Notes: a model not told the origin generated them from the letters alone. 64,000 bases of DNA from Patescibacteria group bacterium (GCA_004322205.1 SCSN01000008.1:18370-82369), one strand, 5' to 3'; positions 15,436 to 51,660 are shown, counted from the stretch's first letter. Translations and numbers: made by a program.

Positions 15436-15535
15436 TTTCTTCCTCAGGGTTCTCCTTCTACTCCGGTATCGCCGGGATTTTGTCTTGTATCGTTTGCGCG
15501 CTATACTATATTCATTACAATTCTTTATCTCTTTG

Positions 15536-16570
15536 ATGAAAACAATTCGAGTTGCGGTGAACGGCGCTGGCAGAATCGGACGAGCATTCATAAAATTGGC
15601 GCAGACGCGCCCCGAGATTGAACTGGTGGCGATCAATGATCTCGGGGATGCTCAAAACATCGCCTATCTAATAAAATACGACTCTGTCTACGGAAAGGCC
15701 CCCTTCGCGGTTTCAGTGCGCCCTGACGGCAAGGCAATTGTGCTCGACGGGCGGGAGATTTTATTTATTGGAGAGAAGGAACTGGCCAAACTTCCTTGGC
15801 GCGATTTGAACGTCGACGTTGTGGTTGAATCCACTGGTCTCTTCGCGAGCTATGAAAAAGCGAAGGTTCATTTGGAGGCGGGAGCAAAAAGAGTGGTTGT
15901 AACCGCCCCCATGAAAGACGATCCCACGCCGGGGATCGAAGGAGCGACAGTTCTTATGGGGGTGAATGATGAAAAGCTCGCCACATGCGCTATCAGCTCG
16001 AACGCTTCGTGTACTACTAATGCAGGGAGTCCCTTGATTGCAATTCTTGATGAAGCGATTGGTATTGAGAAGGCGGTTTTGAATACTGTCCACGGATACA
16101 CAGCCACTCAATCCCTTGTTGATGGTCCTTCTAAGAGGGGATTTCGAGAAGGGAGGGCGGCAGCGCACAACATTGTGCCATCATCCACGGGCGCGGCGAT
16201 TGCAGTAACCAAAGCCTTCACCAAACTTGAAGGGCTTTTTGACGGTGTATCTATGCGTGTGCCGATCATTGCCGGCTCAATTGTTGACGTCACATTCATT
16301 GCAAAAAGAAATACTTCGAAAGAGGAAGTGAACGATATTCTACGCCGTGCCGCAGAGAATCCCCGCTGGAAGGGAATTTTTTCCGTAACAGAAGAGCCGC
16401 TGGTCTCCAGTGATATTTTAGGCAGCTCCTACGGCTCTATTGCCGATCTTGAGTTCACCCGCGTTATCGGTGGCAACTTGGTGAAGGTCTGTGCCTGGTA
16501 CGACAATGAAATGGGATACACTTACACTCTAGTTGAGCATGTGATAAAAACCGGCAGTCATATCATATAG
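15536..16570 (+). CDS. gap: glyceraldehyde-3-phosphate dehydrogenase
   Basis: Start at MKTIRVAVNGAGRIGR (NAD-binding GxGxxG). The active-site SNASCTTN block is present. About 344 aa. Confidence 0.95.
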   Translation: MKTIRVAVNGAGRIGRAFIKLAQTRPEIELVAINDLGDAQNIAYLIKYDSVYGKAPFAVSVRPDGKAIVLDGREILFIGEKELAKLPWRDLNVDVVVESTGLFASYEKAKVHLEAGAKRVVVTAPMKDDPTPGIEGATVLMGVNDEKLATCAISSNASCTTNAGSPLIAILDEAIGIEKAVLNTVHGYTATQSLVDGPSKRGFREGRAAAHNIVPSSTGAAIAVTKAFTKLEGLFDGVSMRVPIIAGSIVDVTFIAKRNTSKEEVNDILRRAAENPRWKGIFSVTEEPLVSSDILGSSYGSIADLEFTRVIGGNLVKVCAWYDNEMGYTYTLVEHVIKTGSHII

Positions 16571-18136: not shown

Positions 18137-19035
18137 ATGCTCTTACTGACAAACAGATCAAGGACCTGGAGGTCAAGGCTAATGCCATTCGCCTCTCCAT
18201 TATTGAAATGCTTCTTGAGGCACGCTCCGGTCATAGCGCCGGTCCTCTTGGCATGGCGGATATTTTCACCTATCTCTATTTTGTCGCACTCAAGCACGAT
18301 CCAAAAAATCCTGATTGGCCCGAGCGCGACCGGCTTGTGCTCTCTAACGGTCACATCTGCCCGGTGCTCTACGCCGCAATGGCGCATACCGGCTATTTTC
18401 CGCTGGAAGAATTAAAGACCTTGCGCAAGCTGGGGACTCGGCTACAAGGTCATCCGCACAGAGAGTATTTGCCCATGCTTGAGACAAGTTCTGGCCCTCT
18501 TGGAGCGGGTCTATCGCAGGCAGTGGGAATGGCAATAGCTGACATTATGGATAATGGCATTGATACTAAACGCACTATCTATGCACTTATGAGTGACGCC
18601 GAACAAGCCGCCGGCAACACTTACGAGGCGGCTTTGCTTGCCGGAAAACTCAAACTCCGCAACCTCATCGCTATTATTGACCGCAATAACATTCAGATTG
18701 ATGGCTTTACCGAGGACGTCATACCCTTAGAACCCCTTGCGGACAAATGGAGGGCGCGCAACTGGCATGTCATTGAAATTGACGGGCATAATTTCGCCGA
18801 TATCCACGAGGCAGTCAATCGGGCCAAGGCCGTGTTTGAAAAGCCGTCAGTAATTATTGCCCACACAATTCCGGGCAAGGGAGTGGGTTATATGGAGCGC
18901 GATTTCAAATGGCACGGCGTCCCGCCGGGAATCCAAGATATGCCCGGCGAGCCGCCCAAAGCGGAGCAAGGCAAAATTGCACTAGATGAGCTGCGTTCTC
19001 TCGGCGGTAGGATAAGCGGATACCATAATGATTAA
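18133..19035 (+). CDS. transketolase, N-terminal (TPP-binding) subunit
   Basis: HSAGPLGMADIF, SNGH and GDG-like TPP-binding blocks. Stop and restart with the C-terminal subunit indicate a split transketolase. Confidence 0.9.
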   Translation: MNALTDKQIKDLEVKANAIRLSIIEMLLEARSGHSAGPLGMADIFTYLYFVALKHDPKNPDWPERDRLVLSNGHICPVLYAAMAHTGYFPLEELKTLRKLGTRLQGHPHREYLPMLETSSGPLGAGLSQAVGMAIADIMDNGIDTKRTIYALMSDAEQAAGNTYEAALLAGKLKLRNLIAIIDRNNIQIDGFTEDVIPLEPLADKWRARNWHVIEIDGHNFADIHEAVNRAKAVFEKPSVIIAHTIPGKGVGYMERDFKWHGVPPGIQDMPGEPPKAEQGKIALDELRSLGGRISGYHND

Positions 19036-24144: not shown

Positions 24145-24248
24145 AGCCTAAAAATAGGAGTAGATTTGGGCACATAATTCTATTAACAAACTATAAGTTT
24201 GGGTGTATGATGTTAAGTAGGTAGAACCTTGAGAAAGCTACTTGTATT

Positions 24249-24299
24249 TATGTACAGCTTTGAGAGTGGTTCCTCGAACTTCTTTCCAAGCTGTACATA
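24249..24299. promoter_or_regulatory. nested palindrome (12-bp arms TATGTACAGCTT/AAGCTGTACATA enclosing GTTCCTCGAAC), candidate operator
   Basis: Perfect 12-bp inverted arms separated by 27 bp that themselves contain the GTTC-CTC-GAAC palindrome. Lies about 70 nt upstream of the GC-rich ORF at 24367. Confidence 0.35.
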
Positions 24300-24366
24300 A
24301 CAGGCCCGCTCTAGGTCCCGGCATTTGGTCGGAGCTTACGGGTGAGCCACAAACAAGGAGAAAGTC

Positions 24367-24984
24367 ATGACCGCCAAGGCCGTGACAACCGCGCAGTTAG
24401 AGCAGATCCGCAAGATGGCGAAGGAGAAGGGCGTCAGCCGCGACCAGTTCCAGCTGGGGCTCGACAACGGAATGTTCGCACGCACCCTCGACGAGCTCAT
24501 CGTCGGCAAGGTGACGGAAACACCAACGGGCCTCTTCCGCCTCGCCGTGGACTGGGGTCGGACGACCGAGGAGATGGTCCGGGCGTGCCAGTACGACTGT
24601 GCCAACCCGGATATCACCGAGGAACACTTCCCCCGGCCGCGCACGAGCGGCGTCGTGAAGGGCGACTACAAGCTCTTTCACTTCAACCGCAATATCTCAT
24701 CGGACCAGGCTGTCCGCGAGATACGCGCCGAGGGCTTCGAGCTTACCGGAGCGCACGAGATCCTCGTCTTCAGGGAGAAGTTCCCCGAGGAGCAGCGGAA
24801 GTTCACCATCGTTGGCCTCGGCGATCCCCTCTGGCGGCGGGACCGGTACGGCTACCGGCACGTGGTTGTGCTCCGCAGGCACGAGGCGCGCCGCTCCGCT
24901 GACCTGACCCTCTGGGAGGTCGTCTGGCCTCCGCTCTACCGCTTCCTCGCCCGTCGCCTGCCTGCCGGACAGGCAGGCAAGTAG
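24367..24984 (+). CDS. hypothetical protein (GC-rich ORFan with canonical SD)
   Basis: 205 aa, AAGGAG 5 nt upstream, very GC-rich by eye, followed by its own terminator. I see no recognisable domain. Confidence 0.5.
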   Translation: MTAKAVTTAQLEQIRKMAKEKGVSRDQFQLGLDNGMFARTLDELIVGKVTETPTGLFRLAVDWGRTTEEMVRACQYDCANPDITEEHFPRPRTSGVVKGDYKLFHFNRNISSDQAVREIRAEGFELTGAHEILVFREKFPEEQRKFTIVGLGDPLWRRDRYGYRHVVVLRRHEARRSADLTLWEVVWPPLYRFLARRLPAGQAGK

Positions 24985-25030
24985 GACCTGGGTCCTAGGA
25001 AAACGGAGCTTCTGGAATTCTAGACCCTCG

Positions 25031-25062
25031 GCCCGCGTGTCTAACGATGCGCGGGCTTTTGC
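25031..25062 (+). terminator. rho-independent terminator
   Basis: GCCCGCG-loop-CGCGGGC followed by TTTTGCT. Confidence 0.6.
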
Positions 25063-27403: not shown

Positions 27404-27431
27404 TTGACAGAAAACACTGATATGCTATAAT
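27404..27431 (+). promoter_or_regulatory. consensus promoter TTGACA-16-TATAAT
   Basis: TTGACA at 27404-27409 and TATAAT at 27426-27431. No ORF follows, only a GC-rich structured region. Confidence 0.5.
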
Positions 27432-27437
27432 TAGTTG

Positions 27438-27795
27438 GAGATCAGTTCGGGGAGGTAAGTAAGCCGCAAGGCCGAAATTCCCCTTCGAGCGTAAGTCCTT
27501 AGGTTGCTCTATTCGTCGGAGCGCCGGGCAGCAAGGTGGGGTCCTCTCTTCTAACGGTGCGTTTGTGTAGGAGATGGTAAGTTATCGGCCTGACGCGGCA
27601 GCCGGTTCGGCGCCCGCGCCCAGTGCGTCCAGCCTAACAAAGAGGGCGGGACGGATGAACGGAGCCCCCGCGGGGCACATCCTCTGGAGTGTATCGTTCC
27701 ACTCCCCGGTAACTAGCCAAGTCTAGACTCTCCCACGCAAACGTGCTGGGGCCTCGTCGCAGTCGTAGTTGACCGCGGCGGGGCCTCTTTGTTTT
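27438..27795 (+). ncRNA. candidate structured ncRNA of about 360 nt (GC-rich; identity unresolved)
   Basis: Sits between a consensus promoter and a GC hairpin plus T-tract (GGGGCCTC...CTTTGTTTTTATT). Contains many GNRA-closed hairpins such as GCC-GCAA-GGC. No credible ORF in any frame. Confidence 0.35.
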
Positions 27796-27873: not shown

Positions 27874-27901
27874 CTTAGTATATCATATATGATGCATTAA
27901 G
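27874..27901. repeat. palindrome family member 1 (CTTAGTATATCATATATGATGCATTAAG, imperfect)
   Basis: Shares the ATCATATATGAT core with the copies at 28518 and 32649. Confidence 0.5.
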
Positions 27902-28069
27902 AAACTCGCAAGAAACTGGCTGTTAGGCGAGTTTTTAGCTTTTGGTTCCAAATTGAAACTATTGAAACTACTGCCTCTTGCTTCCATGACTTATGTTTTC
28001 GCCGCGTCTCCGCTTTTTACACCTTCTCCTTGACAGGCGTCTTTGGGTTGCTATGGTTGGACTAGAGGC

Positions 28070-28416
28070 TCTTGTGCGCCGTGTGAGCAGAAGGGTCAGT
28101 GACTGCGGACGGAGAACTTCAGCGCGTCTCTCCTGGGCACCGGCGCACACAAAAAGACTGGGCAACAGCAGTCTAAGAGCTCATAACCCCGATGGTTGTG
28201 GTGTTCTCGCACCCGTTGTCCAGCCACAATCGTGCTTGTGTCTCGCACACTTTCTTGGGCGAAAGACAATGCGACTCTTGCTTCGGCGAGGGGGGAATGT
28301 AGGTATGGACGGAGCAGTTCCAGCCCAGCGTGGCGCTCGCCACGCACTCCAGGCTTACAAAACCAGCACAGGCATGGACCCCCACGCACGCCACCGTGGG
28401 GGTCTGTCTTTTTCTG
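28070..28416 (+). ncRNA. second candidate GC-rich non-coding transcript (about 350 nt)
   Basis: Weak promoter (TTGACA-16-TATGGT at 28030-28063) and a strong terminator (GACCCCCACG...CGTGGGGGTC plus TGTCTTTTTCTG, 28378-28416). The only ORFs are Arg/Ser-rich overlapping pairs on both strands, typical of non-coding GC-rich DNA. Confidence 0.25.
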
Positions 28417-28517
28417 TCGGGGTGCAGGGCTTTCGGCAAGGTTTGAACGTAAAGATCGAAGCGCGAAAATTTCGCGGGAAACACAGAAAAAGCAAGAAAC
28501 CATGAAACTCTCCTTTC

Positions 28518-28543
28518 TTAGTCTATCATATATGATAGACTAA
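28518..28543. repeat. palindrome family member 2 (TTAGTCTATCATATATGATAGACTAA, perfect 26 bp)
   Basis: Perfect palindrome about 100 nt upstream of rpmE. Confidence 0.55.
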
Positions 28544-28650
28544 GCGTGCAAAAGACAAGAAAGTTTAAGAAAACTGTTGGATTCGCGGCGATAGGTGTAG
28601 GTCAAGTGCCACCCTTGCTTTTTATTTTAAGATTGTTATATTCAGCTCGC

Positions 28651-28869
28651 ATGAAAAAAGACATCCATCCTCAATATTTTGATAAGGCAAATGTCGTCTG
28701 CGCCTGCGGCAATACTTTTACCATTGGCTCGACAAAAGAACGAATCGAGGTGGAAATCTGCAGCGCCTGCCACCCCTTTTACACCGGCACCGAGAAAATC
28801 ATTGACTCCGCCGGACGAGTTGAGAAATTCAAATCCAGGCGCGCCAAAGCGGCAAAGAGCAAGAAATAA
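28651..28869 (+). CDS. rpmE: ribosomal protein L31
   Basis: MKKDIHPQY...CACG...[10 protein letters not shown] zinc-ribbon L31 pattern. Start trimmed to the ATG at 28651, 8 nt after an extended -10 (TGTTATATT). Confidence 0.9.
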
Positions 28870-28994
28870 CTAATAACGAGCGACAAACGACCGACCCCAA
28901 ACGAAATGACGACTGGCAGCGAGCTATTTCGTACGGGGCAGGCGACTGGCGACCTTAAAATCTTGCATTTGTCTTGTTTGTTGTTGGTTGAGAT

Positions 28995-29966
28995 ATGGAC
29001 TTAGAGAAATACAAAAGAAATAAAAAGACAGCGTACTTGGCAGAGTCCTATGAAAAACTTCTTGGGGAGGAGAAGGAAATTCTGGCTTTGTCAGAAAGTG
29101 ATCCTTCGATGAGAACATTGGCGCAGGATGAGTTCAAGGGGATCGGCGCTCGGAAGAGTGAGCTGGTAGCACGGATGGAGGAGTATTTAGCTGAAGAAAA
29201 AAGGCAAGAAGAGTCTCCTCGCGCAATCATTCTTGAAATCCGCGCCGGCGTAGGCGGAGAGGAAGCAACGCTTTTTGCGGCTTTGCTGGCAGCGATGTAT
29301 GAAAAGTATGTTCTCTCCTGCGGCTGGAGCTGGAAGGTTATTAACCAGTCGAGAGGCGATTTGGGTGGTTACAAGGAAGCCGCGTTTGAAGTTGGGGGCG
29401 ATGGTGTTTACGATGAACTGCGCTTTGAGACCGGCGTGCACCGCGTTCAGCGCATTCCCAAAACTGAAAAGTCGGGGCGGATTCACACCTCAACTGCTTC
29501 GGTCGCGATTCTGCCGCTGCGTAAGCGTGCGCAGATTGAAATTAATCCAGCAGATCTGGAAATTGAGTTTTCGCGCTCCGGCGGCAAGGGCGGGCAGAAT
29601 GTTAACAAAGTAGAGACAGCAGTGCGCATTATCCACAAGCCGACGGGTATTGATGTCCGCTCAACTTCGGAGCGCAGCCAGAAAGCCAATCGCGACAAAG
29701 CTCTGGCGATTCTATCGGCTAAGCTTGAAGCGATTGAAGAGGAAAAAGAGCTGCGCTCACGGGTGGAAGAAAGGAGAACCCAGATTGGCACTGCTCTGCG
29801 TTCGGAAAAAATTCGGACGTATAATTTTCTCCAGGATCGCCTGACTGATCATCGCTTGAATGAATCGTGGCATAACTTGGAAGGCATTCTCGCCGGTAAC
29901 CTCGGTCCGGTGGTTGAAGCGTTTAAAGCAGCCACATCAGCTAAGAAATCTGTTGCGCGGCAGTAA
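28995..29966 (+). CDS. prfA: peptide chain release factor 1
   Basis: GGQ motif ([11 protein letters not shown]) and the RF1-type tripeptide PKT in [17 protein letters not shown]. Confidence 0.9.
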
Positions 29967-29997
29967 CAGATCTGTTAGGATAATTTTCGCTTCTGCT

Positions 29998-30762
29998 ATG
30001 GCAGAACACAGCAAAAACGAGTCACAACTTATTGATAAGCTCTTCGCAGCAGGAGCACATTTTGGTTTGATCCGCTCCCGCCGCCATCCCTCTGTTAAAC
30101 CTTTTCTCTTTGGTATAAAAAATCGGGTGGAGATTTTCGACCTGGTGAAAACGAGCGAAGCCCTACTTACGGCAAAGAATTTTGTAAAGCAAATCGGAGC
30201 GTCCGGCGGGATTTTGCTTTTCGTCGGCGGCAAAACTGAAGCTAAAGATGCCATAAGGGGGGGCACCGGTTCGATCTCGATGCCATACGTTGCCGGCCGC
30301 TGGCTGGGCGGGACACTCACCAACTTTGCCGAAATTCGCAAACGCATCGCAAAGCTTGTGGAGCTTACAGCGCAGCGAGAGAGGGGAGAACTTGCCAAAT
30401 ACACCAAAAAAGAGCGCGTGCTCATTGACCGAGAGATTGACCGCCTTCAGGAATTTTTCTCCGGCCTTGTAACACTTACGGCGCTGCCAAAGGCGCTCTT
30501 TGTAGTTGATCCGAGGCGGGAAATAAATGCCGTCCGCGAAGCGCGGCATCTCAAGATTCCCATCGTGGCATTGGCGAGCTCCGATTGTAATGTTCACGAG
30601 GTTGATTATCCCGTGCCAGGCAACGACGCTTCGAAGGCAAGTATAGAGTTTGTTGTTAGCGAAATAGTCTCCGCTTTTGCGGAAGGAAGAAAGGCGGCGC
30701 CGGCGGCAGCGGCGGCGGAGAGTGGAGCGAGTGAGGCGGGGGAAGTTACATTAAGGCGATGA
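29998..30762 (+). CDS. rpsB: ribosomal protein S2
   Basis: LFAAGAHFG...ILFVGGKTEA pattern with an Ala-rich C-terminal extension. Start trimmed to the ATG at 29998, after the prfA stop. Confidence 0.9.
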   Translation: MAEHSKNESQLIDKLFAAGAHFGLIRSRRHPSVKPFLFGIKNRVEIFDLVKTSEALLTAKNFVKQIGASGGILLFVGGKTEAKDAIRGGTGSISMPYVAGRWLGGTLTNFAEIRKRIAKLVELTAQRERGELAKYTKKERVLIDREIDRLQEFFSGLVTLTALPKALFVVDPRREINAVREARHLKIPIVALASSDCNVHEVDYPVPGNDASKASIEFVVSEIVSAFAEGRKAAPAAAAAESGASEAGEVTLRR

Positions 30763-31343
30763 TTACTGCAGAACAAGTCAGGCAATTGCGCAGTAAAACC
30801 GGGCTTTCCGTTATGCAGTGCCGGAAGGCGCTTGAAGAAGCGGACGGTGATATGGAGAGAGCCGCTTTTCTCCTGCGGCAGAAAGGCGGGGAAGCTCTCA
30901 AGAATAAATCCGGGAGGGCGCTTTCGGCGGGTGTAGTTTCATCTTATATTCACAACACCGGCACTGTCGGGGCAATTGTTGAGCTTTTCTGCGAGACAGA
31001 TTTTGTGGCGAAGAATGAGGAATTTCGGGCGCTTGCCCACGATGTCGCTATGCAGGTGGCGGCGACCGATCCGCAGTTTTTGAATCTCGAGGACATAACG
31101 CCGGAAGTAAAAAAGTCTGTGGAGGAAATTTTTCTCCCGGAAGTTGGAGACATACCCCGGGATCTCAAGAAAAAAATCCTGGAAGAAAAACTTCGAGCGC
31201 ATCTCGGCGAGCGGACGCTAATGGAGCAGCCCTTTATCAAAAACCCGGAGCTTACGGTGAGCAGTCTAGTTGCCGGGGCGGTGCAGAAATTTGGCGAAAG
31301 AATTGAGATCAGGCGTTTTGCTCGTTTTTCAACTCAAGGCTAA
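30759..31343 (+). CDS. tsf: translation elongation factor Ts
   Basis: The N-terminal LRSKTGLSVMQCRKALEEADGD is the UBA-like EF-Ts signature. This is the short 194-aa form. Confidence 0.9.
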   Translation: MITAEQVRQLRSKTGLSVMQCRKALEEADGDMERAAFLLRQKGGEALKNKSGRALSAGVVSSYIHNTGTVGAIVELFCETDFVAKNEEFRALAHDVAMQVAATDPQFLNLEDITPEVKKSVEEIFLPEVGDIPRDLKKKILEEKLRAHLGERTLMEQPFIKNPELTVSSLVAGAVQKFGERIEIRRFARFSTQG

Positions 31344-31344
31344 T

Positions 31345-31755
31345 ATGTTTCTCACTATAGTATTTTTCTTTTCCCTGGCGGGACTTGTGGTCCTTGTCGG
31401 TCTCAAGGTCTATGAGTTTAGGAGCGGCAGACGAGTAATCTCCCGCAGCTTACTTGCAAAGTGGAATGCGGTTCTTCACCGCGAGACGGCGCGCGGCCGC
31501 GGACGGCTTACTGTCGCCCGGGAGCGCGGCAGAGTCTTTCTCGTTCGTGAACTACCTAGGCACTCCGAAGCGCTCGTCGACATGCTGCGGCGTGAATTTG
31601 AGAGGGCATACCAGAAGTTTCTGGAGAAGGTACGGGGAAGCCGAGTGCTTCACTCAAACGGCAAAGTTTCCGACTTTTTGGAAAAAATCTCTGAAGAGAG
31701 AAAAAATGGGAAGAAGAATAATTCTAGCAATACCTCGAGCACAACACAAACCTAG
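31345..31755 (+). CDS. hypothetical membrane-anchored protein
   Basis: ATG 1 nt after the tsf stop. One TM helix, then an Arg-rich soluble region. Confidence 0.45.
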   Translation: MFLTIVFFFSLAGLVVLVGLKVYEFRSGRRVISRSLLAKWNAVLHRETARGRGRLTVARERGRVFLVRELPRHSEALVDMLRREFERAYQKFLEKVRGSRVLHSNGKVSDFLEKISEERKNGKKNNSSNTSSTTQT

Positions 31756-31798
31756 CTTTTGAAATTTGCGGGCTTTGCGTTAGAATTCTTTCGGACTT

Positions 31799-31870
31799 GC
31801 CGCCTTAGCTCAATGGTAGAGCACTCGCTTTGTAAGCGAATGGTTCCCGGTTCAAGTCCGGGAGGCGGCT
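31799..31870 (+). tRNA. tRNA-Thr (anticodon UGU)
   Basis: Hand fold: acceptor GCCGCCT/AGGCGGC, D-arm GCTC...GAGC, anticodon loop TTTGTAA, T-arm CCCGG-TTCAAGT-CCGGG. CCA is not encoded. Confidence 0.8.
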
Positions 31871-31877
31871 CAAGAAT

Positions 31878-31905
31878 TTGATTTTTATTTGCCCAGAGCT
31901 ATAAT
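31878..31905 (+). promoter_or_regulatory. promoter TTGATT-16-TATAAT
   Basis: Immediately downstream of the tRNA. Drives a GC-rich non-coding stretch. Confidence 0.4.
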
Positions 31906-31911
31906 GTTAAA

Positions 31912-32128
31912 TGCAACGGTAATCGGAGAGATGCGACTATCTTCGGGAGTCTATAGCTGTTGCTTCTACGGGGGCGCCGGGCATCGCCTTATAAAGCTGC
32001 CTAATTCTCATAATCAGTGAAGGGTGGAGCCTGATCGTAGCCATCCGGAGAGAGAAGAGCGATCACCCACGATCGTCGCAATCGGTGGGCCGGGCGCTGG
32101 GTCTTGATGACCAGCGCCCTACTCTTTT
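31912..32128 (+). ncRNA. candidate small structured RNA of about 215 nt (identity unresolved)
   Basis: GC-rich, no ORF, and ends in the hairpin GGGCGCTGG...CCAGCGCCC plus TACTCTTTTGTT (32091-32130). Confidence 0.25.
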
Positions 32129-32232
32129 GTTATAATTTGCCGAGTAGAAAAAGAGTCTGTACAGAAGAAGATTTCTGAAATTAAAACCGCTTCCAAGATT
32201 TGACTTTCGGGCAAGAAACAGAGGTAAAACCC

Positions 32233-32580
32233 ATGATGACTTCTAGAAAATTCCAGCGTACCAAGGAAGACTTCACCTGCGAGAGGTGCGGTTTCTTTGT
32301 ACGCGGGAGCGGCTACACCAATCACTGTCCGCAGTGTTTGTGGAGTAAGCACGTTGACGTGAATCCCGGCGACCGCGAGGCGCGATGTCAAGGACTCATG
32401 GAACCCGTAGGCGTGGAACTCAAGGGCGGAGAATACACCATTCTCCATCGCTGCGTCTCTTGCGGTTTTGAGAAGCGGAACAAGGCGGCGAAGGACGATA
32501 ACTTCACGCCATCCTTCAGCCAACCGCCGGAATTTTTGATAAGTAGGTTCCCCCCAGAGGCGGGCAGGCGAGCGCAGTGA
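32233..32580 (+). CDS. RNHCP-domain zinc-ribbon protein
   Basis: CERCG ... YTNHCPQC ... CVSCG cysteine pairs with the (R/T)NHCP motif. AGAGGT RBS 7 nt upstream, and an extended -10 (TGTTATAAT) at 32127-32135. Confidence 0.55.
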   Translation: MMTSRKFQRTKEDFTCERCGFFVRGSGYTNHCPQCLWSKHVDVNPGDREARCQGLMEPVGVELKGGEYTILHRCVSCGFEKRNKAAKDDNFTPSFSQPPEFLISRFPPEAGRRAQ

Positions 32581-32648
32581 TAAAGATACTCCACGATTAG
32601 ACTTTCGGACAGAGCACCCACTTTTTGACTAACAAAAACGCTAAGTCT

Positions 32649-32672
32649 TAATGTATCATATATGATACATTA
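32649..32672. repeat. palindrome family member 3 (TAATGTATCATATATGATACATTA, perfect 24 bp)
   Basis: Between the RNHCP gene and the GH1 gene. Confidence 0.55.
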
Positions 32673-32726
32673 GGGAGTGTTATGTCAGCGACACGGAGTG
32701 TTATAATTTGCTGATATAATTGGGTT

Positions 32727-39298: not shown

Positions 39299-41671
39299 AT
39301 GCTAGTTTCCTACAAGTGGTTACAGGGATATTTTGATGAGCCGCTTCCTCCTGCAGAAAAGCTGGTAGAGCTTTTAACTAGATACGCCTTTGAAGTTGAG
39401 TCTGTTGAAAAAAGAGGAGAGGATTCTGTTTTGTACGTCAAAGTTCTGCCTGACAGAGCGCATGATTGCCTCTCTCACATTGGGATTGCAAAAGAAATCT
39501 CAACCATCTCTCGCCTGCCGCTCAAAACCGGCTTGGTTTCAGCGCGCCAACTCTCCGCGCCGGAATCAAATTTGCTGAAGGCAGAGTCAGAAGATCCTGC
39601 TTTGTGTCCTCGCTTCAGTGCGCTGGTCATAGAAAATGTTGAGGTCAAAGAAAGCCCGGGCTGGCTCAAGGATTTGCTTGCCGCAATCGGGCAAAAGTCC
39701 GTCAATAATATCGTTGACGTTACAAACTACTGCATGTTTGCCTACAACCAGCCGCTTCATGCCTACGATTTGGGCAAGCTCTCCTCTGGCGAAGAGGGCT
39801 ATAAACTTACTGCCAGAACCGCCGGCAAAAAGATGAAATTTCTCGCGCTGGATGATAAAGAGCACAATCTTGTTGAAACCGATTTGATTATAGCCGACGG
39901 AGTATCTGGTGAGACGCTCGGAATTGCCGGTATAAAAGGCGGCAAGGCGTTTCAAATAGAGGAGAACACGAAACGCATTGCTCTAGAGGCGGCAAATTTT
40001 AACCCTGTTTCAATCAGCAAAACTTCAAGACGCCTTTCTCTTCTGACTGACGCCTCAAGACGCTTTGAAAACGGAATTTCCCCGAGCCTGACGCTCATTG
40101 GGCTTTCCGAAGCTTCGAGACTGATTCTTGAGATTGCCGGGGGGGAGAAGATACGTGTTGAGGGACTTTGCGACTTTTATCCGAGGAGGGCCAATCCTTA
40201 CAAACTGGGAGTATCTCTTTCTGAAGTAAGAAATTGGCTCGGCCTTGATATAACTTCGGCTGAAATTGAGGAAATTCTCAATCGCCGCGGATTTGAGTGG
40301 GGGCTTGTCAGTCCTCGTGAAGAAATTGTTGCGCGCGCCAAAGAGCTCATCGGCGTCCCGTACAAATACGGCTCCAGTGTTCTTTACGACGCGCCGAAAA
40401 CATTTGATTGTTCCTCGTTTACAGCGTACTTGTGCGCGCAGGCGGGTGCCTCCATTCCGAGGATGACGATAGACCAGTATGTTTGGATGGAGTCGGTTGA
40501 AGATGGAGAAGCACAGCCAGGCGATTTTGTTTTTTCAAATACACATGACTTAAAAAGAGTGATACGGACTGAAAGTGTCGAATTTATGGCGGGCACAAAA
40601 GTGCCCGACGGGGTTGATCACGTTGGTGTTCTTCTCGGCGAAGGCAAGGTCGTTCACGCCACTGAAACTGCGGGAAAGGTTATAAAAGAGGAGCTGGCGG
40701 GAGCCCCGCGCTTTCAAGATTTACGCGGCTTCAGGCGAGCTGTGAGCGACGGGAAGAGATACGTTGTAACAGTTCCCGATGAGCGGCTTGATTTGAGAAT
40801 AAAGGAGGATTTGATTGAAGAAATCGGGCGGCTCTACGGTTATGACAGAATCGGCTCGAGGACCATATCTGGTTTTCCACAAGAGCCGGAGATCAACAAG
40901 ACCGCTTATTACTGTGATAGAATCCGCGACTTACTCCGCGCGAAAGGGTGCTCGGAAGTTATCACCTACGCCCTGCGCAGTGATGGGGAAGTTGAACTTG
41001 AGAATCCCACAGCCTCCGACAAGCGTTTCCTGCGCCGCAATCTCTCCGATGCTTTGAGCGAATCGCTTGAAATTAATGTCCGCAATGCCGATTTGCTAGG
41101 TCTCGACGAAATCAAAATTTTCGAAATCGGCAATGTTTTTCCAAAAGAAGGCGAGCGCCTATCCATTGCGCTAGGTGTGAAGAACGGCAGGGGTTCGGCA
41201 AAAAAGGAGACAGAAGAAGTCAAAGAAATTGTCAGCATGCTCTCTGCCGAGTTGGGGGTCGAATTTCCTCCACCAAACGGAGCAGTATATGAGGTGAATT
41301 TAGGGAAAATCTTGGACGGATTGCCCGCGCCGGAGAAACCGCTCTCTTACGAGAAGCCGCTCTCTTTTAGTTACAAGAAGTTCTCGCCTTATCCTTTCGT
41401 CGTTCGTGACATTGCTGTTTTGAGTAGCGAAGAACCAAAGAAGGTGGAAGAATTTGTTGTAAATGGTGCTAGAGAAGCCATCAAGGGCTCAAAGATTGAT
41501 TTGGTGAACAGTCGGATATTCGACGTCTTCGAGCCTAAGGAGGGAGGTAAGTCAACGGCCGTCCGCCTGGTGTTTCAATCGTCGGAGCGAACGCTTACAG
41601 ACAGTGAAGTGAACGAGATTATGAAGAAAGTGACAGAAGATGTTTCAGAAAAAGGTTGGCAGGTAAGATAA
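39299..41671 (+). CDS. pheT: phenylalanine--tRNA ligase beta subunit with an inserted NlpC/P60-like domain
   Basis: N-terminal MLVSYKWLQ, B3/4, B5 and C-terminal anticodon-binding regions. An NlpC/P60 signature (GVPYKYG, FDCSSF, QPGDFVF, HVGVLLGEGKVVHA) lies in-frame inside the B5 region. Confidence 0.9.
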   Translation: MLVSYKWLQGYFDEPLPPAEKLVELLTRYAFEVESVEKRGEDSVLYVKVLPDRAHDCLSHIGIAKEISTISRLPLKTGLVSARQLSAPESNLLKAESEDPALCPRFSALVIENVEVKESPGWLKDLLAAIGQKSVNNIVDVTNYCMFAYNQPLHAYDLGKLSSGEEGYKLTARTAGKKMKFLALDDKEHNLVETDLIIADGVSGETLGIAGIKGGKAFQIEENTKRIALEAANFNPVSISKTSRRLSLLTDASRRFENGISPSLTLIGLSEASRLILEIAGGEKIRVEGLCDFYPRRANPYKLGVSLSEVRNWLGLDITSAEIEEILNRRGFEWGLVSPREEIVARAKELIGVPYKYGSSVLYDAPKTFDCSSFTAYLCAQAGASIPRMTIDQYVWMESVEDGEAQPGDFVFSNTHDLKRVIRTESVEFMAGTKVPDGVDHVGVLLGEGKVVHATETAGKVIKEELAGAPRFQDLRGFRRAVSDGKRYVVTVPDERLDLRIKEDLIEEIGRLYGYDRIGSRTISGFPQEPEINKTAYYCDRIRDLLRAKGCSEVITYALRSDGEVELENPTASDKRFLRRNLSDALSESLEINVRNADLLGLDEIKIFEIGNVFPKEGERLSIALGVKNGRGSAKKETEEVKEIVSMLSAELGVEFPPPNGAVYEVNLGKILDGLPAPEKPLSYEKPLSFSYKKFSPYPFVVRDIAVLSSEEPKKVEEFVVNGAREAIKGSKIDLVNSRIFDVFEPKEGGKSTAVRLVFQSSERTLTDSEVNEIMKKVTEDVSEKGWQVR

Positions 41672-46722: not shown

Positions 46723-47139
46723 TTACTCGTAGTGGAGCTCTATCTTGTCCCCGTCATGCATTACGTAGTTCTCGTATTCGCTATTTTCTTTGCCGTTGAC
46801 GGTCATTTTCACATTTTCTCCGAAAGAGTGTATATCTTTGCCCCAAACTTTGAAAAACTGACCGAGCTTGATGTCGTCTTGTCTCACTAACCCGTCAAAT
46901 TCGAGGTGAATCAACGGCAGGTCGTCGTGGGTGTGAATGGGGGAATGTACCGCCCCGAGGCCTGTGTTTTCGGGTATTTCAACTTTCTCTCCTTTAACGA
47001 GAATTTTCAGCCCCGGATGCCAGTGGATTCCGCCGCGAGCGATAACACCTGGATCATTTTTCTGGAGACTTCTTGACCAAAAGACTCCTCCGGCAAGCAG
47101 TAAAATAACAACAACAATAAGTATCAATCCCTTTTTCAT
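46723..47139 (-). CDS. hypothetical exported protein, possibly metal-binding (His-rich HWHP / HTHDD)
   Basis: N-terminal TM or signal. Adjacent to, and co-directional with, the P1B ATPase. Confidence 0.4.
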   Translation of the reverse strand: MKKGLILIVVVILLLAGGVFWSRSLQKNDPGVIARGGIHWHPGLKILVKGEKVEIPENTGLGAVHSPIHTHDDLPLIHLEFDGLVRQDDIKLGQFFKVWGKDIHSFGENVKMTVNGKENSEYENYVMHDGDKIELHYE

Positions 47140-49262
47140 ATTTTTTGCTTGCGAAGCAGTATAGCATTGAATGCCACAATGACGGTAGATAACGACATGA
47201 ATATCGCCGCCACTGCCGGCTCTAGAATGATTCCCTTGAATGCCAGCGCCCCTGCCGCAAGCGGCAACGCCACTATGTTATAGCCTGTTGCCCAGAAGAG
47301 GTTTTGGAGCATTTTTGAGTAGGTGAGTTTGGAGAGACGAATGATTTTTGGAATATCTCGGGGATCGCTTTTGACAAGTATGATGCCTGCTGATTCTATG
47401 GCAACATTGGTGCCAGCGCCGATGGCAATACCGAGGCTCGCTTGGGTGAGGGCGGGCGCATCGTTGACACCATCGCCCACAAATGCCACCTTGGCGCTCT
47501 CTTTCTGAAGAAGTTTTACCTTTTCGGATTTCTGGTGCGGCAGGACCTTGGCAAAGTATTGGTCAACGCCGAGCTCTTGTGAGACCCACGCCGCCACGTC
47601 TTCGGAGTCGCCAGTAACCATCGCCACCTTGATGCCAAGAGCCTTAAGGGAGCGAACTGCTTCTCGGGATTCCGGCCGGATAACGTCAACCAGCGCAATG
47701 CTTCCCGCCAGTTTCCCATCTACAACCACGTGAATCGTAGTCTTGCCTTGCTTTGTCAGTCCGGAGATTTTTGTCTGATGGCTGCTCTCGAGAGTGATGC
47801 CGAGTTCAGCAAGGAGTACGTCGCTTCCGACGAAAACCTTTTTGTCTCCCACATCAGCTTTCGCTCCCTTTCCGGCAAGGCGCTCGAAGTTTTTTATTGT
47901 CAAATTTCCTATTTTTCGCGCCGCCGCCTCTGAAACGATGGCTTTGGCAATGGGATGTTCCGATTCTCGGTTGACTCCCGCGGCATAACGCAGCACTTCT
48001 TCTTCAGGAAAACTATCAGCAGAAATTATAGCGTCAACTCCAAACTCTCCGCGGGTCAAAGTTCCTGTCTTGTCGAAGAGAACAGTGTCAACATTCCTGG
48101 CTGCCTCGAGAGCCAGGCGTTGCCGAACCAAGAGACCGTTTCGCGCCGCCATGGTGGTTGAGATTGAAGCTACTAGTGGAACCGCGAGCCCCAGAGCGTG
48201 GGGGCAGGCGATAACCAGCACCGCGACAAGGCGCTCGGTGGCAAAAACAATCCCTGCTTTAGCGAGAATCCAGAGAATAAAAGTGAGTCCTCCGGCGGCG
48301 ACGGCAACAACAGTCAGGTAAAATGCTGCCCGATCAGAGAGAATCTGGAGACGCGATTTGCTGGCCTGCGCTTCCGCCACCAGCCGCATGACGCCGGCAA
48401 GAAAGGTGTGCTCTCCGATTTTGCTGACCGAAATCTTGAGACTGCCGTCACCGTTTATTGCTCCAGCAATGACCTCGTCGCCGACCTTTTTGGGTACCGG
48501 CTTCGACTCCCCGGTAATTATAGATTCATTGAGTTCCGTTCTCCCCTCGATAATTTTTCCGTCGGCTGGTACTTTGCCTCCCGGTTTTACCATAACCAGA
48601 TCTCCGATAGTAAGTTCTGAAAGGGGGACAATCACAGTCGAGTTACCGCGGATAACCTCTGCAGTATCCGGCAGAAGCTTTGCCAGCTCCTTTAGGGCAC
48701 CCTGGGCTCCCGCGACCGCTCTCATTTCAATCCAGTGGCCAAGGAGCATGATGCCAATCAGAGTCGAAAGCTCCCAGAATAGATTGTGCGGTGAGCCGCG
48801 CAACACCTCAAAGACACTGAAAAGATAGGCGGCGGAAATGGCAAGGGCAATCAAGGTCATCATCCCCGGGAGACGTGCTTTTAGTTCGCGATATGCGCCA
48901 ATGATAAACACCCATCCGCCGTAGAAGAAAACAGCCGAGCCGAGAGCAAGGATGAAGAGACTTGAACCGCGAAAGATTGGCGCTTGCCAACCGAGGACTT
49001 TTTCCGAAAGCTCCGAGTAGGCAAGAATGGGTATGGTCAGTATGGCAACAACCCAGAATTTCTTTAAGAAATCCTGCGTTTTATGCCCGGCGTGCTTGTC
49101 GTGAGAGTGGTCTTTCTCTTTTTTATTTCTTCCTTCCGTTGGTACAAGGTTCATTCCGCATTCGGGGCAGATGCCGGGTGTTTCTCGTACAATTTCCGGA
49201 TGCATCGGGCAGGTATATATCTTCTGTTCTCCGGAATTCTTGTCGTTGTGATTGTGATTCAT
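47136..49262 (-). CDS. heavy-metal (copper) translocating P1B-type ATPase, CopB-like (CPH motif)
   Basis: An N-terminal CPMHPE...CPECG metal-binding finger, a TM CPH motif, DKTGTLT, GDGVNDAPAL and the TGES-like actuator. Confidence 0.85.
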   Translation of the reverse strand: MNHNHNDKNSGEQKIYTCPMHPEIVRETPGICPECGMNLVPTEGRNKKEKDHSHDKHAGHKTQDFLKKFWVVAILTIPILAYSELSEKVLGWQAPIFRGSSLFILALGSAVFFYGGWVFIIGAYRELKARLPGMMTLIALAISAAYLFSVFEVLRGSPHNLFWELSTLIGIMLLGHWIEMRAVAGAQGALKELAKLLPDTAEVIRGNSTVIVPLSELTIGDLVMVKPGGKVPADGKIIEGRTELNESIITGESKPVPKKVGDEVIAGAINGDGSLKISVSKIGEHTFLAGVMRLVAEAQASKSRLQILSDRAAFYLTVVAVAAGGLTFILWILAKAGIVFATERLVAVLVIACPHALGLAVPLVASISTTMAARNGLLVRQRLALEAARNVDTVLFDKTGTLTRGEFGVDAIISADSFPEEEVLRYAAGVNRESEHPIAKAIVSEAAARKIGNLTIKNFERLAGKGAKADVGDKKVFVGSDVLLAELGITLESSHQTKISGLTKQGKTTIHVVVDGKLAGSIALVDVIRPESREAVRSLKALGIKVAMVTGDSEDVAAWVSQELGVDQYFAKVLPHQKSEKVKLLQKESAKVAFVGDGVNDAPALTQASLGIAIGAGTNVAIESAGIILVKSDPRDIPKIIRLSKLTYSKMLQNLFWATGYNIVALPLAAGALAFKGIILEPAVAAIFMSLSTVIVAFNAILLRKQKI

Positions 49263-49268
49263 ATTTTT

Positions 49269-49691
49269 CTATCTTAAACTCCATTCAAATGAACGCAGAG
49301 GAATGCCGCCAATGTTTTTAATCTGCAGTTCTATACGCTCCGGCGGGGGATTGATTGAATTGAATCTTATCACCCCCCCTCTGTGGTGGCCGCCCGGTGG
49401 GTCGCCCTGCCAAGAGAGCGGCTTGTATTGTTTACCGTTTTCATCTATAAGAGTCGATGTGCTCACCAGATCTTCATTTAACTCTACTGAATGCGTGCTA
49501 AGTGTCACTTCAAAGTTCCAGAATTCTGCGCTTTTCGATATTTGTGGCTTTACTGTTATTGTTACGCCGCCCGCGTCGCTAGCTTGCGGTTCTAAAGTTC
49601 TTTCATCAATTGGCTCGGCGCTCCTGCGGGGGTATAGAGTAAGGGGAACCGTTGCGGCAATAAGAACTGCAATAATGAATAAGTATTTCAT
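49269..49691 (-). CDS. hypothetical secreted protein or lipoprotein
   Basis: Signal-like N-terminus, no recognisable domain. Confidence 0.4.
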   Translation of the reverse strand: MKYLFIIAVLIAATVPLTLYPRRSAEPIDERTLEPQASDAGGVTITVKPQISKSAEFWNFEVTLSTHSVELNEDLVSTSTLIDENGKQYKPLSWQGDPPGGHHRGGVIRFNSINPPPERIELQIKNIGGIPLRSFEWSLR

Positions 49692-50125
49692 GCTCTTAAA
49701 AACTTTCTAATTTTGTTTGTTATGTACCAGATGCCGAAAATATTGGCGGCAAGACCGACCCAGAAGAGCTCAATTTGGTATTGCCCGATAAATGAGATTA
49801 GTCCTGCAATGCCTACTACCGGCAGTATGTTTGCAAGATAATGAGCGCAGCAGGAAAGCGTGGCGACAGTTGAAGTTGTTCCTGAAGCAACCACTGCTCC
49901 CTTCGGCACGCTTCTTCGGATTGCGTTCTTGAGATAAGAGTAAAGGCCGATTTGTATGCCGAAGCCGAGAGTCAAACTCACAATGAAATACCAGAATCGG
50001 GTAAACTGCTCCAAGGCGAATGCCCAGCCTGAAATCAGGGTGACTACCGCAAAATAGAGGGCAAGAAGCGATAACGCCGCCAATATTCCTTTGAACGCTG
50101 ACTGGATTTTCATTAGACACTGCAT
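49688..50125 (-). CDS. hypothetical 4-TM membrane protein
   Basis: Hydrophobicity pattern only. Confidence 0.4.
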   Translation of the reverse strand: MQCLMKIQSAFKGILAALSLLALYFAVVTLISGWAFALEQFTRFWYFIVSLTLGFGIQIGLYSYLKNAIRRSVPKGAVVASGTTSTVATLSCCAHYLANILPVVGIAGLISFIGQYQIELFWVGLAANIFGIWYITNKIRKFLRA

Positions 50126-50985
50126 CCGCTCCCTCCTCTCGGCTCACGATTCATCTGGTCTTTAAATTTTTGATACCCCGAAGCGCTTGAGTAAGTTGCG
50201 CTCAAAATCTGCTTCGGACTGGTTGTTTCCCAGCGTATGCCCCTGGATTTGAAGTACTCTCCCAGCGAGCGGTAAGTGTCGGGAAACCAAGCCGAATTGG
50301 CCGCAAGAGCTGCCTTGTACATCTCTTCTTCGCTTACATTTTGCGCTGACATCAGTTCAAGAAGCCCGAGCATTGCCATACCGTGATTGCAGTCTGGCAG
50401 ATGAGCGGGGTTGTTGCAGCAGGGGCGGTAAATTGTTCTGGCGAGTCGCTCGACGAGCGACTCCTGCTCGGCTGTGAGCGGTAAAAAGCGGTGTCTGCCC
50501 AAGTGCTCCATCGCGTCGCCTCTGGCAATTGTCCAGCCCGCTGTTGACGCCAGCCCTCCGGCGGTGTTTTTGTCGGCGAAGAAATTTTCTTCCAGCAGTT
50601 TGTTCTTCTGGCCAAGACCTAATGCCCAAAGAAAATTCAGTAAGATATCAGAATTTTCAGGATTTATTTCGACGTAAGCATCTTCATTTTGACTAAGTAA
50701 TTTAGCTGCTTCAGACAACCTTCCGCTTTGCCGATACAATTCTTCAAATTTTTTTCTGTCAATCACTCCAGCGCTCACCATTCTCTCTCCCAGATTCCTC
50801 AGCTTGATTGGCAGGACGTAGCTTTCCGCCGTTATTTTCTCCGGGGGCAGGCTCGCTGCTCCGTCTCCATTTCCACCGTAAACGTAGATTATTGCCCCGG
50901 CTATTAAGAGCCCCGACAGAATAATGCTTCCCGGCAGAGTGAGTTTATTCTCTGTCTTTATATTTTGCTCTTTATCCGACCCCAC
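50113..50985 (-). CDS. hypothetical membrane-anchored protein (Cys-rich CCNNPAHLPDCNHG block)
   Basis: N-terminal TM. A possible metal or thiol site, which is a guess. Confidence 0.4.
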   Translation of the reverse strand: MGSDKEQNIKTENKLTLPGSIILSGLLIAGAIIYVYGGNGDGAASLPPEKITAESYVLPIKLRNLGERMVSAGVIDRKKFEELYRQSGRLSEAAKLLSQNEDAYVEINPENSDILLNFLWALGLGQKNKLLEENFFADKNTAGGLASTAGWTIARGDAMEHLGRHRFLPLTAEQESLVERLARTIYRPCCNNPAHLPDCNHGMAMLGLLELMSAQNVSEEEMYKAALAANSAWFPDTYRSLGEYFKSRGIRWETTSPKQILSATYSSASGYQKFKDQMNREPRGGSGCSV

Positions 50986-51239
50986 TATTTTTTGGTTCTG
51001 TTAAATAACTCGATGAATAGCCAGATTCCGAGCAGGGCAATAATGTTCCAGATAACTAGGCCGGAAATAAACGTCCCGAAGGTAAGAACGTTTTGACCAA
51101 TGTCAGTTTCTGTATGCAGGGCGTAGCGCATAAAGGCAGAACGGATGCCCGGGAAAAGCGCCACGCCTGCATAACAAATGGCGTAAACAATACTGATCCA
51201 AGCTAAACTCACTCTTAGAAGATGTTTGATGTTAATCAT
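50985..51239 (-). CDS. small membrane protein
   Basis: 84 aa with two TM helices. Confidence 0.3.
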   Translation of the reverse strand: MINIKHLLRVSLAWISIVYAICYAGVALFPGIRSAFMRYALHTETDIGQNVLTFGTFISGLVIWNIIALLGIWLFIELFNRTKK

Positions 51240-51255
51240 GGTTTTATATTAACTG

Positions 51256-51660
51256 CTAACAACAATCCTTGAATTTGTCCTCGGAAGCCTTTCGCCGCAG
51301 GCGTCCGAGAACAAACATTACCGTTACCAGAGCGACCACCGAGAATAGAATTAACGCCTTCAGAGCGTCTTCGATAACGAGGAGATAAATTCCAGCCGAC
51401 CCTAAAACTACGAGAATTGTTTTCCAGAAAAACCCAAACTTAGAGCCATATTTTTCGGCGAGAGCCCCTAGGCTTGCCCCCGTAAGAATCGCGATGAAGA
51501 GAGGATCAACGGGTAAGTTTGTTGCGTAGAGAAGTAAAAGACCAACTAGCCAGGTTAGAGCGACTGCGGAGCATATAGGGCAGAATCTTAAAATATCCAG
51601 TTTATGGAGAATCCAGAAAAGTATCACTGACCCGATTAGAATTGCCAGAAGAATTGTCAT
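51256..51660 (-). CDS. hypothetical membrane protein with CPIC motif
   Basis: 134 aa, polytopic. Confidence 0.35.
   Translation of the reverse strand: MTILLAILIGSVILFWILHKLDILRFCPICSAVALTWLVGLLLLYATNLPVDPLFIAILTGASLGALAEKYGSKFGFFWKTILVVLGSAGIYLLVIEDALKALILFSVVALVTVMFVLGRLRRKASEDKFKDCC

Follow-up and report, generated by a model that had tools for sequence, protein, structure and literature searches.

Palindromes P1 to P3 in a Patescibacteria contig

We analysed a 64,000-nt stretch of DNA from a Patescibacteria group bacterium (GCA_004322205.1, SCSN01000008.1:18370-82369; hereafter the window, with positions counted from its first letter), which contains three copies of a palindrome, designated P1 to P3, that are probably binding sites of a TrpR-like regulator. 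The plus-strand order of genes around them, as assigned with Pfam, starts with fructose-bisphosphate aldolase, an FAD oxidase, a 205-aa open reading frame (ORF; 65–70% GC, no family), L25 and an SLT-like protein; these are followed by 1,345 bp of non-coding DNA, rpmE, an RF1-type release factor, rpsB, tsf and tRNA-Thr, and then by a 220-nt non-coding stretch, an RNHCP-domain gene, GH1, more glycosyl hydrolase or transferase genes, pheS and pheT. The release factor shows at most ca. 64% identity to any other record, and its matches are from Parcubacteria or Paceibacterota, the host being a Patescibacterium. The non-coding DNA 5' of rpmE comprises two units, segments A and B, in each of which a sigma-70-type promoter precedes a GC-rich body that ends in an intrinsic terminator.

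Within the 64 kb, the palindrome core, ATCATATATGAT, is found at exactly three positions, 27882, 28525 and 32655, and no further copies appear when one mismatch is allowed. The mean chance expectation is 0.05 copies, and none of 100 dinucleotide-preserving shuffles gave three. The full repeat unit is a 28-bp dyad with arms CTTARTnTATCATA and TATGATAnAYTAAG (half-site in register, tCTTARTnTATCATA), to which no strand is assigned. P1 (27874..27901), between segments A and B, is an imperfect 28-bp dyad with arms CTTAGTATATCATA and TATGATGCATTAAG, complementary at 11 of 14 arm positions; its minus-strand arm is TATGATATACTAAG, that is, the promoter-type arm of the upstream site, O1, described below for other genomes. 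P2 (28517..28544), between segment B and rpmE, is a perfect 28-bp palindrome, CTTAGTCTATCATATATGATAGACTAAG, with arms CTTAGTCTATCATA and TATGATAGACTAAG, and lies about 105 nt 5' of the rpmE ATG (28651) and about 110 nt past the terminator of segment B. P3 (32647..32674; arms TCTTAATGTATCATA and TATGATACATTAGG), between the RNHCP-domain gene and GH1, is perfect over its inner 24 bp (32649–32672) and complementary at 13 of 14 arm positions over 28 bp. It is situated 67 nt past the RNHCP stop codon and 53 nt ahead of the GH1 ATG, and adjoins the -35 region of an TGTTATAAT extended -10 at about 32696–32705. Each palindrome is 67–110 nt downstream of the end of the preceding unit, and their centres are about 176 (P1 to segment B), 120 (P2 to rpmE) and 51 nt (P3 to GH1) upstream of the nearest predicted starts.

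The sequence-only reading had described three intergenic copies of 24–28 bp without T-tracts. The excess over chance indicates that the three copies are real, and all of them lie between Pfam-supported ORFs or within non-coding sequence; only the lengths and coordinates had to be slightly extended, to the 28-bp unit and to the ends of P2 and P3 given above. The same reading considered them unlikely intrinsic terminators, which we find reasonable: none has a canonical T-tract, and only P3 is borderline, marginally passing a loose, simple scanner. Alignment of 200 nt around each copy revealed no likeness beyond ca. 30 nt, which rules out a miniature inverted-repeat transposable element or another larger repeat.

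Other short repeats are found close by. Direct repeats of the type AAGAAAC(T) or GAAACT, with 9–11 nt spacing, adjoin P1 and both flanks of P2 (27902–27960, 28470–28515 and 28546–28580; for example, AGAAACTcgcAAGAAACTgg and attGAAACTattGAAACTac), and a distinct repeat, GGAGTGTTAT, is present 3' of P3 in two copies 22 nt apart.

A TrpR-like gene between paired palindromes

Scanning one genome per species, for 185,579 species, with TTARTNNATCATATATGATNNAYTA as a query retrieved 41 stretches, of which 34 belong to labelled lineages of the candidate phyla radiation (CPR): Saccharibacteria, Nomurabacteria, Paceibacterota, Zambryskibacteria, Minisyncoccia, Gracilibacteria, and Parcubacteria or Patescibacteria group. 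The flanks of the matches agree with those of the window copies (CTTAGT..ACTAAG), and the 28-bp dyad is largely confined to the phylum Patescibacteria. At least one copy adjoins an ORF of about 130 aa in 13 loci of the scan, and in nine loci this ORF is enclosed by paired dyads 449–491 bp apart. The enclosed ORF belongs to PF01371 (Trp_repressor; 43.8 bits against a cut-off of 27, E 2.6e-11), a domain carried by all 120 listed relatives of the protein. The score against the curated YerC/YecD family (TIGR02531) is 22.4 bits, below the cut-off of 42.2, and the nearest solved structures are the TrpR-like 3FRW, 3G1C and 3KOR. These CPR proteins start with MPH[IV]SSKKL and end with GLPPRAGRGRWKFLY. 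An AlphaFold2 monomer is all helical with a low pLDDT of 61, as might be expected for an intertwined dimer. In an hhalign comparison of low probability, with a single-sequence template, the CPR-invariant residues T43, R53, T79 and R82 are opposite T44, R54, T81 and R84 of E. coli TrpR, which we take to be residues of the corepressor pocket; a small-molecule ligand for the CPR protein is plausible. We found no paper linking TrpR or YerC with Patescibacteria in the searchable literature.

The usual neighbours of the TrpR-like gene, gyrB, dnaE and thrS, are stable across many lineages. A phage or mobile origin was considered and rejected: among 2.9 million viral contigs there were no relatives of the protein, and the motif gave a single match, an O1-type site at a contig end. 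This contig, filed as viral (L127, IMGVR_UViG_3300009285_005166), ends at 7950–7993 in a typical O1-type site, TTCTTAACTTATCATATATGATATACTAAC, and is probably a piece of a CPR genome or prophage that breaks off just ahead of the regulator gene.

Since this first sample was selected by the motif, we also searched metagenome contigs by the protein alone, which gave at least 600 candidate stretches, 374 of them confirmed; 80 loci were kept, 70 of them distinct. We scored 14-mer palindromes with at least 6/7 arm pairs, located up to 90 nt upstream of the ATG (O1) or up to 120 nt past the stop codon (O2). An upstream palindrome was present in 57 of the 65 evaluable loci (perfect in 45/65), and one past the stop in 61 of 64 (perfect in 40/64), against a background, in random 100-nt windows of the same loci, of 14% and 0.9%. 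Within a locus, the O1 and O2 cores were identical in 32 of 50 cases and differed by one base in another nine. A third dyad copy within the 8-kb loci around the TrpR-like gene is rare.

The two sites differ in their anatomy. O1 is asymmetric. Its gene-proximal arm, TATGATATACTAAG, reads TG-n-TATACT, with T at +8 in 95%, A at +9 in 97% and C at +10 in 91% of sites, and the equivalents of these three positions are degenerate both in O2 and in the distal arm of O1. The proximal arm thus contains TGATATACT, an extended -10, in more than 90% of sites, so that predicted binding at O1 would occlude the promoter and result in autorepression. The extended -10 is the norm among the predicted promoters of the lineage, as in TGcTATAAT (segment A), TGtTATAAT (ahead of GH1) and TGaTATACT (ahead of GH1 in L123, one of the syntenic relatives described below). 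The centre of the O1 dyad is 26–27 nt from the ATG in most loci, a distance from which we infer that transcription would start about 7 nt past the -10, with a leader of only about 8 nt. O2 lies about 20–71 nt past the stop codon, is more symmetric than O1 and often extends to 36 bp, AATTCCTTAA..TTAAGGAATT.

The sequence of the inner core varies among genomes, while the outer arms CTTAA/TTAAG remain constant. Beside TATCATA/TATGATA, core variants include TAACATA/TATGTTA, TAGCATA/TATGCTA, CACCATA/TATGGTG, TACARTA/TAYTGTA, ACCGATA/TATCGGT and AGCGATA/TATCGCT, among others. They are paired with variants of the predicted recognition helix: MSPATIxRMS occurs with TATCATA, [VI]SYPT[LI]SRMS with TAACATA, VSYSTLSRMS with TAGCATA, MSETTIFRMY with CACCATA, ..TT..KMS with TACARTA and VSISTVTRMS with ACCGATA. 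VSSSTVNRIS is a further helix with its own core type, for at least seven variants in all. A core that changes with the recognition helix is the pattern expected of a site read by a protein; we take this covariation as support rather than proof, because shared descent confounds it. The two sites of a genome share one core variant, which tracks the helix; this points to a trans-acting reader.

Palindromes of other types were also seen. L125, another syntenic relative of the window, contains perfect 28-bp palindromes ahead of pheS (CTAATTCATTGCTA and TAGCAATGAATTAG, 15517–15544) and after pheT (AAATTTGTACGATA and TATCGTACAAATAA, 18742–18769). The latter is similar to operators of the CGATATATCG type, which go with divergent TrpR-like proteins (L119 and L122), and a GIY-YIG pseudogene adjoins it.

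A 32-nt position weight matrix, built only from the loci selected by protein (training median 46.1, 10th percentile 37.9), gave scores of 45.6 for P2, 40.3 for P1 and 38.6 for P3, the next best site in the window scoring -9.2. The three palindromes are, therefore, full members of the site family. From these comparisons, P1 to P3 are probably binding sites of a hitherto undescribed, Patescibacteria-specific subfamily of TrpR/YerC-type helix-turn-helix (HTH) regulators.

GC-rich segments and gene context of the window

Segment A (27404..27795, plus strand), upstream of P1, has a TTGACA-16-TATAAT promoter with 12/12 matches, a GC-rich body of 365 nt with a fold z-score of -3.9 against shuffled controls, and a terminator. 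In the relatives L123 and L126, the genes from aldolase to pheT stand in the same order as in the window, and at the position of segment A both have a non-coding, GC-rich unit of about 570–650 nt (L126 9060–9660; L123 8870–9490) behind a conserved promoter, TTGCTTGACA..TATGCTATAATA. The promoter conserved among the three genomes is TTGACA..TATGCTATAAT, the 5' start contains CCGCAAGG, and the unit has a terminator at its end; what the relatives have in common with segment A is the promoter and the first ca. 50 nt. Because both occur at the same place in syntenic relatives, segment A is not an inserted cassette; we interpret it as a non-coding, RNA-like and as yet unnamed unit whose promoter and 5' start are common to the lineage. 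The unit of L123 additionally contains a (GGTTCTC)x6 tandem repeat at about 9018–9060.

P1 and P2 bracket segment B (28030..28407, plus strand), a GC-rich non-coding unit that has a TTGACA-16-TATGGT promoter, an intrinsic terminator and a fold z-score of -4.8. It occupies the position that the TrpR-like gene holds between the paired palindromes of other genomes, and shows no TrpR-like similarity. No counterpart was detected in the relatives, and its 170-aa ORF had no homologue among 1.84 billion representative proteins. Segment C (31878–32135) follows tRNA-Thr and has a TTGATT-16-TATAAT promoter, a GC-rich terminator hairpin and a fold z-score of only -1.4. Searches of Rfam by gathering threshold and by E-value, covering window and relatives, assigned neither the palindromes nor any of the segments A, B and C to a family, and ARAGORN detected only two tRNAs, and no tmRNA, in the window. 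Paralogy of the three segments was ruled out, since they show no similarity among them or to the fetched loci. The GC-rich "cassettes" of the sequence-only reading are mostly non-coding RNA-like units.

Two genes in the window have the appearance of acquisitions. The 205-aa ORF at 24367–24984 has 65–70% GC in a genome of 49% GC and belongs to no Pfam family. Its product is identical to NCBI EPN83_01530, the next best match (58% identity) is from a Proteobacteria MAG (metagenome-assembled genome), and in L123 and L126 no such gene separates FAD oxidase from L25. It is preceded by a 25-nt inverted repeat (24248–24300) and followed by a terminator hairpin, and the region 24248–25060 is probably a horizontally acquired island. 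Two copies of a 22-nt direct repeat, TCCAaGATTtGACTTTCGGgCA (32192–32213 and 32590–32611; 86% identity), exactly enclose the RNHCP-domain gene, 20 nt ahead of the ATG and 10 nt after the stop codon; at the position of this gene, L123 contains an HNH gene and L126 no corresponding gene. It looks like an insertion with a duplicated junction.

These data bear on the proposal that each palindrome marks the point at which a GC-rich cassette meets a core gene. It is accurate only in part: P1 has GC-rich non-coding segments on both sides, P2 has segment B and rpmE, and P3 has the RNHCP-domain gene and GH1. As boundaries of inserted cassettes, the palindromes are mostly unsupported: segment A retains its promoter and 5' start in relatives, no palindrome borders the clearly foreign gene at 24367–24984, what surrounds the RNHCP gene is a direct repeat and not a palindrome, and no recombinase was found among the ca. 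40 window ORFs scanned. At most, the cassette picture would apply to P1, segment B and P2, where one discrete unit is bracketed.

Elsewhere in the window, a minus-strand block (46723–53920) occupies the place downstream of gyrB at which the TrpR-like gene is found in many other CPR genomes; it includes a heavy-metal P-type ATPase (47136–49262) and a CsoR-type metal-sensing repressor (52951–53223). The product of pheT (39299–41671) has an NlpC/P60 peptidase domain inserted at residues ca. 352–469, which is also present in L123 and L126 and absent in L125.

Putative orphan operators and alternative explanations

Most likely, P1 to P3 are orphan operator or roadblock sites, with the regulator gene absent from the 64 kb. 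Several observations weigh against such an assignment. No TrpR-like ORF was found in the window with tblastn and a family hidden Markov model in all six frames, and what P1 and P2 enclose is a GC-rich non-coding unit, not the regulator. None of the three palindromes overlaps a -10 or -35 among the promoters predicted in the window. The targets are not conserved, as the syntenic relatives L123 to L126 have no ATCATATATGAT-type site before rpmE or GH1, and orphan sites in other MAGs adjoin unrelated housekeeping genes such as polA, ligA, secA, grpE, scpB, murI and pyrB. The gene following O2 is convergent in 46 of 58 loci, because of which O2 is usually not the operator of a downstream promoter. 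Neither this placement nor the housekeeping neighbours are what a classical promoter-operator regulon predicts. Finally, O2 shows a weak excess of arm complementarity (positions 9, 10 and 15–17; p ~0.02).

On the other side, three MAGs contain orphan sites on some contigs and the regulator on others (L005 and L012 with L019; L009 with L026; L031 with L022); a gene located outside the window is, therefore, the likeliest situation, and the cognate gene is probably found elsewhere on the source contig, of 118 kb, or in the rest of the genome. As local partners, a Pfam search of about 40 window ORFs offered only two, neither of them credible: the CsoR-type repressor beside the copper ATPase, and a protein with HNH repeats that matches sigma-r4 weakly. 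Other neighbours of the sites include Ham1 and LMWPc. The only recurrent target seen other than the regulator is a Cys-rich protein of about 570 aa with CxxC repeats and no Pfam family, which in three CPR MAGs has the palindrome 6–19 nt upstream (L002, from 1889; L011, from 3369; L030, from 2960). Among the candidates offered by the sequence-only reading, the operator of a dimeric repressor has gained strong comparative support, as the dyad flanks a TrpR-family HTH gene across Patescibacteria and covaries with its recognition helix. The suggestion to look for an HTH gene elsewhere in the genome was the right lead. Resemblances to LexA/SOS, NrdR and Fur/Zur boxes were considered and dropped once the TrpR-like association appeared; the window rpmE is of the Cys-containing form, which is not the usual Zur target.

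As to its mode of action, the regulator would bind the dyad as a dimer or, given the length of 28–36 bp, as two dimers. At O1 it would repress its own promoter by occlusion of the -10, and O2 might serve as an auxiliary operator through a loop of some 450 bp, might form a roadblock to transcription that enters from the convergent neighbour, or might do both. The window sites lie between units and away from any predicted -10, so that insulation, roadblock or upstream modulation fits them better than simple -10 occlusion; the bound protein may insulate or modulate segment B, the rpmE-prfA-rpsB-tsf operon and the GH1 operon. A broader proposal, which we consider rather unlikely, is that the TrpR-like protein and its 28-bp dyad constitute a phylum-wide, protein-based insulator or roadblock system and not a metabolic regulon. 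Bound dyads would then be placed between units, preferring convergent junctions, and at both sides of the regulator gene, where they would stop read-through in small genomes with weak terminators; in the window, a structured RNA gene, segment B, would have taken over the bracketed position, and the rpmE and GH1 operons would be insulated alike.

We weighed three other explanations for the palindromes. One is that they are relics of an O1-trpR-O2 module that once lay between the SLT-like gene and rpmE, with the regulator lost or displaced and nothing bound now. The absence of the TrpR-like gene from a window that contains its usual neighbours gyrB, dnaE, thrS and gap is consistent with such a loss, as are the bracket-like spacing of P1 and P2 around something other than the regulator, the O1 promoter arm on the minus strand of P1 with no ORF behind it, and the already imperfect P1. 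However, unselected AT-rich palindromes are expected to decay, and the perfect 28-mer of P2 and 24-mer of P3 score like functional sites; moreover, the 64 kb inspected are a small fraction of the genome, and orphan sites coexist with the regulator in other MAGs. We consider a relic unlikely. We consider it very unlikely that the palindromes act chiefly as RNA or DNA hairpins, be they bidirectional terminators without T-tract, RNase III-type processing sites or cruciforms, with the protein link being secondary. The predicted RNA stability of P2 (-15.0 kcal/mol, and -15.8 on the minus strand) and P3 (-13.5), with z-scores of -4 to -5.8, would fit this idea, and so would the position of the window sites 67–110 nt past the preceding unit, the location of O2 between convergent genes, its weak excess of complementarity and the terminator-like P3. 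Against it, the sequence, beyond mere pairing, is conserved across classes of the phylum, and arm positions 8–10 in O1 and position 8 in O2 are complementary only at chance level. Hairpin formation is thus not what selection mainly maintains. Furthermore, one core variant is found at both sites of a genome, tracking the recognition helix, and O1 is upstream of the start codon, where a terminator would block expression. Nor does the dyad have the features of an intrinsic terminator: the stems are A+U-rich, and the flank consensus is AAGGAAT or AAGAAA, with no T-run and no U-tract following. Hairpins survive, weakened, as a secondary role through the 3'-end and convergent placement of sites. In one Saccharibacteria lineage, the operator is contained in perfect palindromes of about 50 bp (L009, ca. 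4883–4932; L026, ca. 924–977, both from one MAG; and L108, ca. 1995–2045), whose outer arms vary by site, e.g. ACACCAAAAGCTTAG..CTAAGCTTTTGGTGT. This is the sole place with site-specific compensatory pairing, which hints at a hairpin role there.

We give the least credence to recombination or attachment sites, either of the Xer/dif-module or of the integron type, with the TrpR-like gene as cargo elsewhere and segment B as cargo here. The 28 bp can be read as an 11-6-11 layout, and two copies bracket a discrete unit both in the window and in other genomes. The neighbourhood is also variable, since the spacer from the SLT-like gene to rpmE, which measures 1,345 bp in the window, is shorter in L126 (737 bp) and L123 (823 bp), and the region from tRNA-Thr to GH1 contains RNHCP in the window, nothing in L126 and HNH in L123. 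Nevertheless, the characteristics of a tyrosine-recombinase core site (dif, pdif or att) are lacking: the central ATATAT is symmetric and confers no polarity, the foreign GC-rich gene is not flanked by palindromes, and the ca. 40 ORFs scanned, a subset of those in the window, include no recombinase. Three copies within 5 kb would, besides, promote deletion or inversion. The stable neighbours of the TrpR-like gene across lineages fit vertical inheritance over mobility, and the viral contigs contain no relatives of the protein.

By family and predicted mechanism, the proposed orphan operators would belong to an autoregulated repressor system of the TrpR/HisR type, with a palindromic operator and an unusual architecture. 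It is set apart from both TrpR and HisR by the length of the site, the bracketing of the gene, the conserved extensions at both protein ends and the want of a coherent regulon. Relatives of TrpR and HisR autoregulate via palindromic operators (PMC9413887). With E. coli TrpR, which acts at the trpEDCBA, aroH and trpR operators, the CPR protein shares the family PF01371 and, in related loci, a dyad that overlaps the regulator's own promoter (O1 in 57/65). Unlike it, the CPR protein has an additional conserved basic C-terminal tail, GRGRWKFLY, and the N-terminal MPHxSSKKL; there is a second operator past the stop codon, and aromatic amino-acid genes are not near the CPR sites. The dyad also has a different sequence and, with 28 bp, or 36 bp at O2, exceeds the ca. 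18–20 bp of TrpR and HisR operators such as TGTAcTnGTnnACnAgTACA (about 20 bp). HisR (YerC), from Firmicutes and others, is likewise a TrpR-family protein, of about 100 aa, with lineage-specific palindromic operators that co-evolve with the protein and with frequent autoregulation (PMC9413887). The nearest structures of the CPR protein (3G1C, 3FRW and 3KOR) are of the HisR type, and some CPR members bear the JGI label "uncharacterized protein YerC". However, the CPR protein is about 30 aa longer and scores below the YerC/YecD cut-off, the HisR motif, cacTTTAn6TAAAgtg, is not the CPR dyad, and no his biosynthesis or transport genes adjoin any CPR site, so that neither score nor regulon places it in that family.

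Other systems offer partial analogies. As in lambda CI OL/OR, LacI O1/O2 and GalR OE/OI, two near-identical operators are separated by a few hundred bp and the regulated promoter lies at one of the two, and in lambda the repressor gene also lies between the operator regions. The analogy extends only to the way in which O1 and O2 might act: the protein families are unrelated, the CPR O2 is in a convergent intergenic region, and looping is only a proposal. REP/REPIN-RAYT systems resemble the CPR arrangement in a small gene flanked by two palindromic copies, in additional intergenic copies, often at gene 3' ends, and in an element that covaries with its protein. In contrast, the CPR protein is an all-helical TrpR-type HTH and not an HUH/Y1 transposase, its neighbourhood is stable, and copies number a handful per genome (three in the window) rather than tens to hundreds. 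Tus/Ter of E. coli and RTP/Ter of B. subtilis also combine a small DNA-binding protein, whose autoregulated gene lies beside its own site or sites, with dispersed intergenic copies that act as roadblocks. Nonetheless, Ter sites are polar, asymmetric and clustered at the terminus, the CPR sites are symmetric, the folds are unrelated, and nothing ties the CPR sites to replication.

For the window, the idea of cassette boundaries gives way to a concrete site assignment, with an operator pair around an RNA-like unit as an oddity. More generally, transcriptional control is barely known in Patescibacteria/CPR, a group with very few regulators that accounts for much of bacterial diversity. Our analysis provides for them a conserved regulator subfamily, its putative operator with a weight matrix, a candidate code from recognition helix to core specificity and a likely promoter architecture, in which the extended -10 would lie inside the operator and the mRNA would be nearly leaderless.

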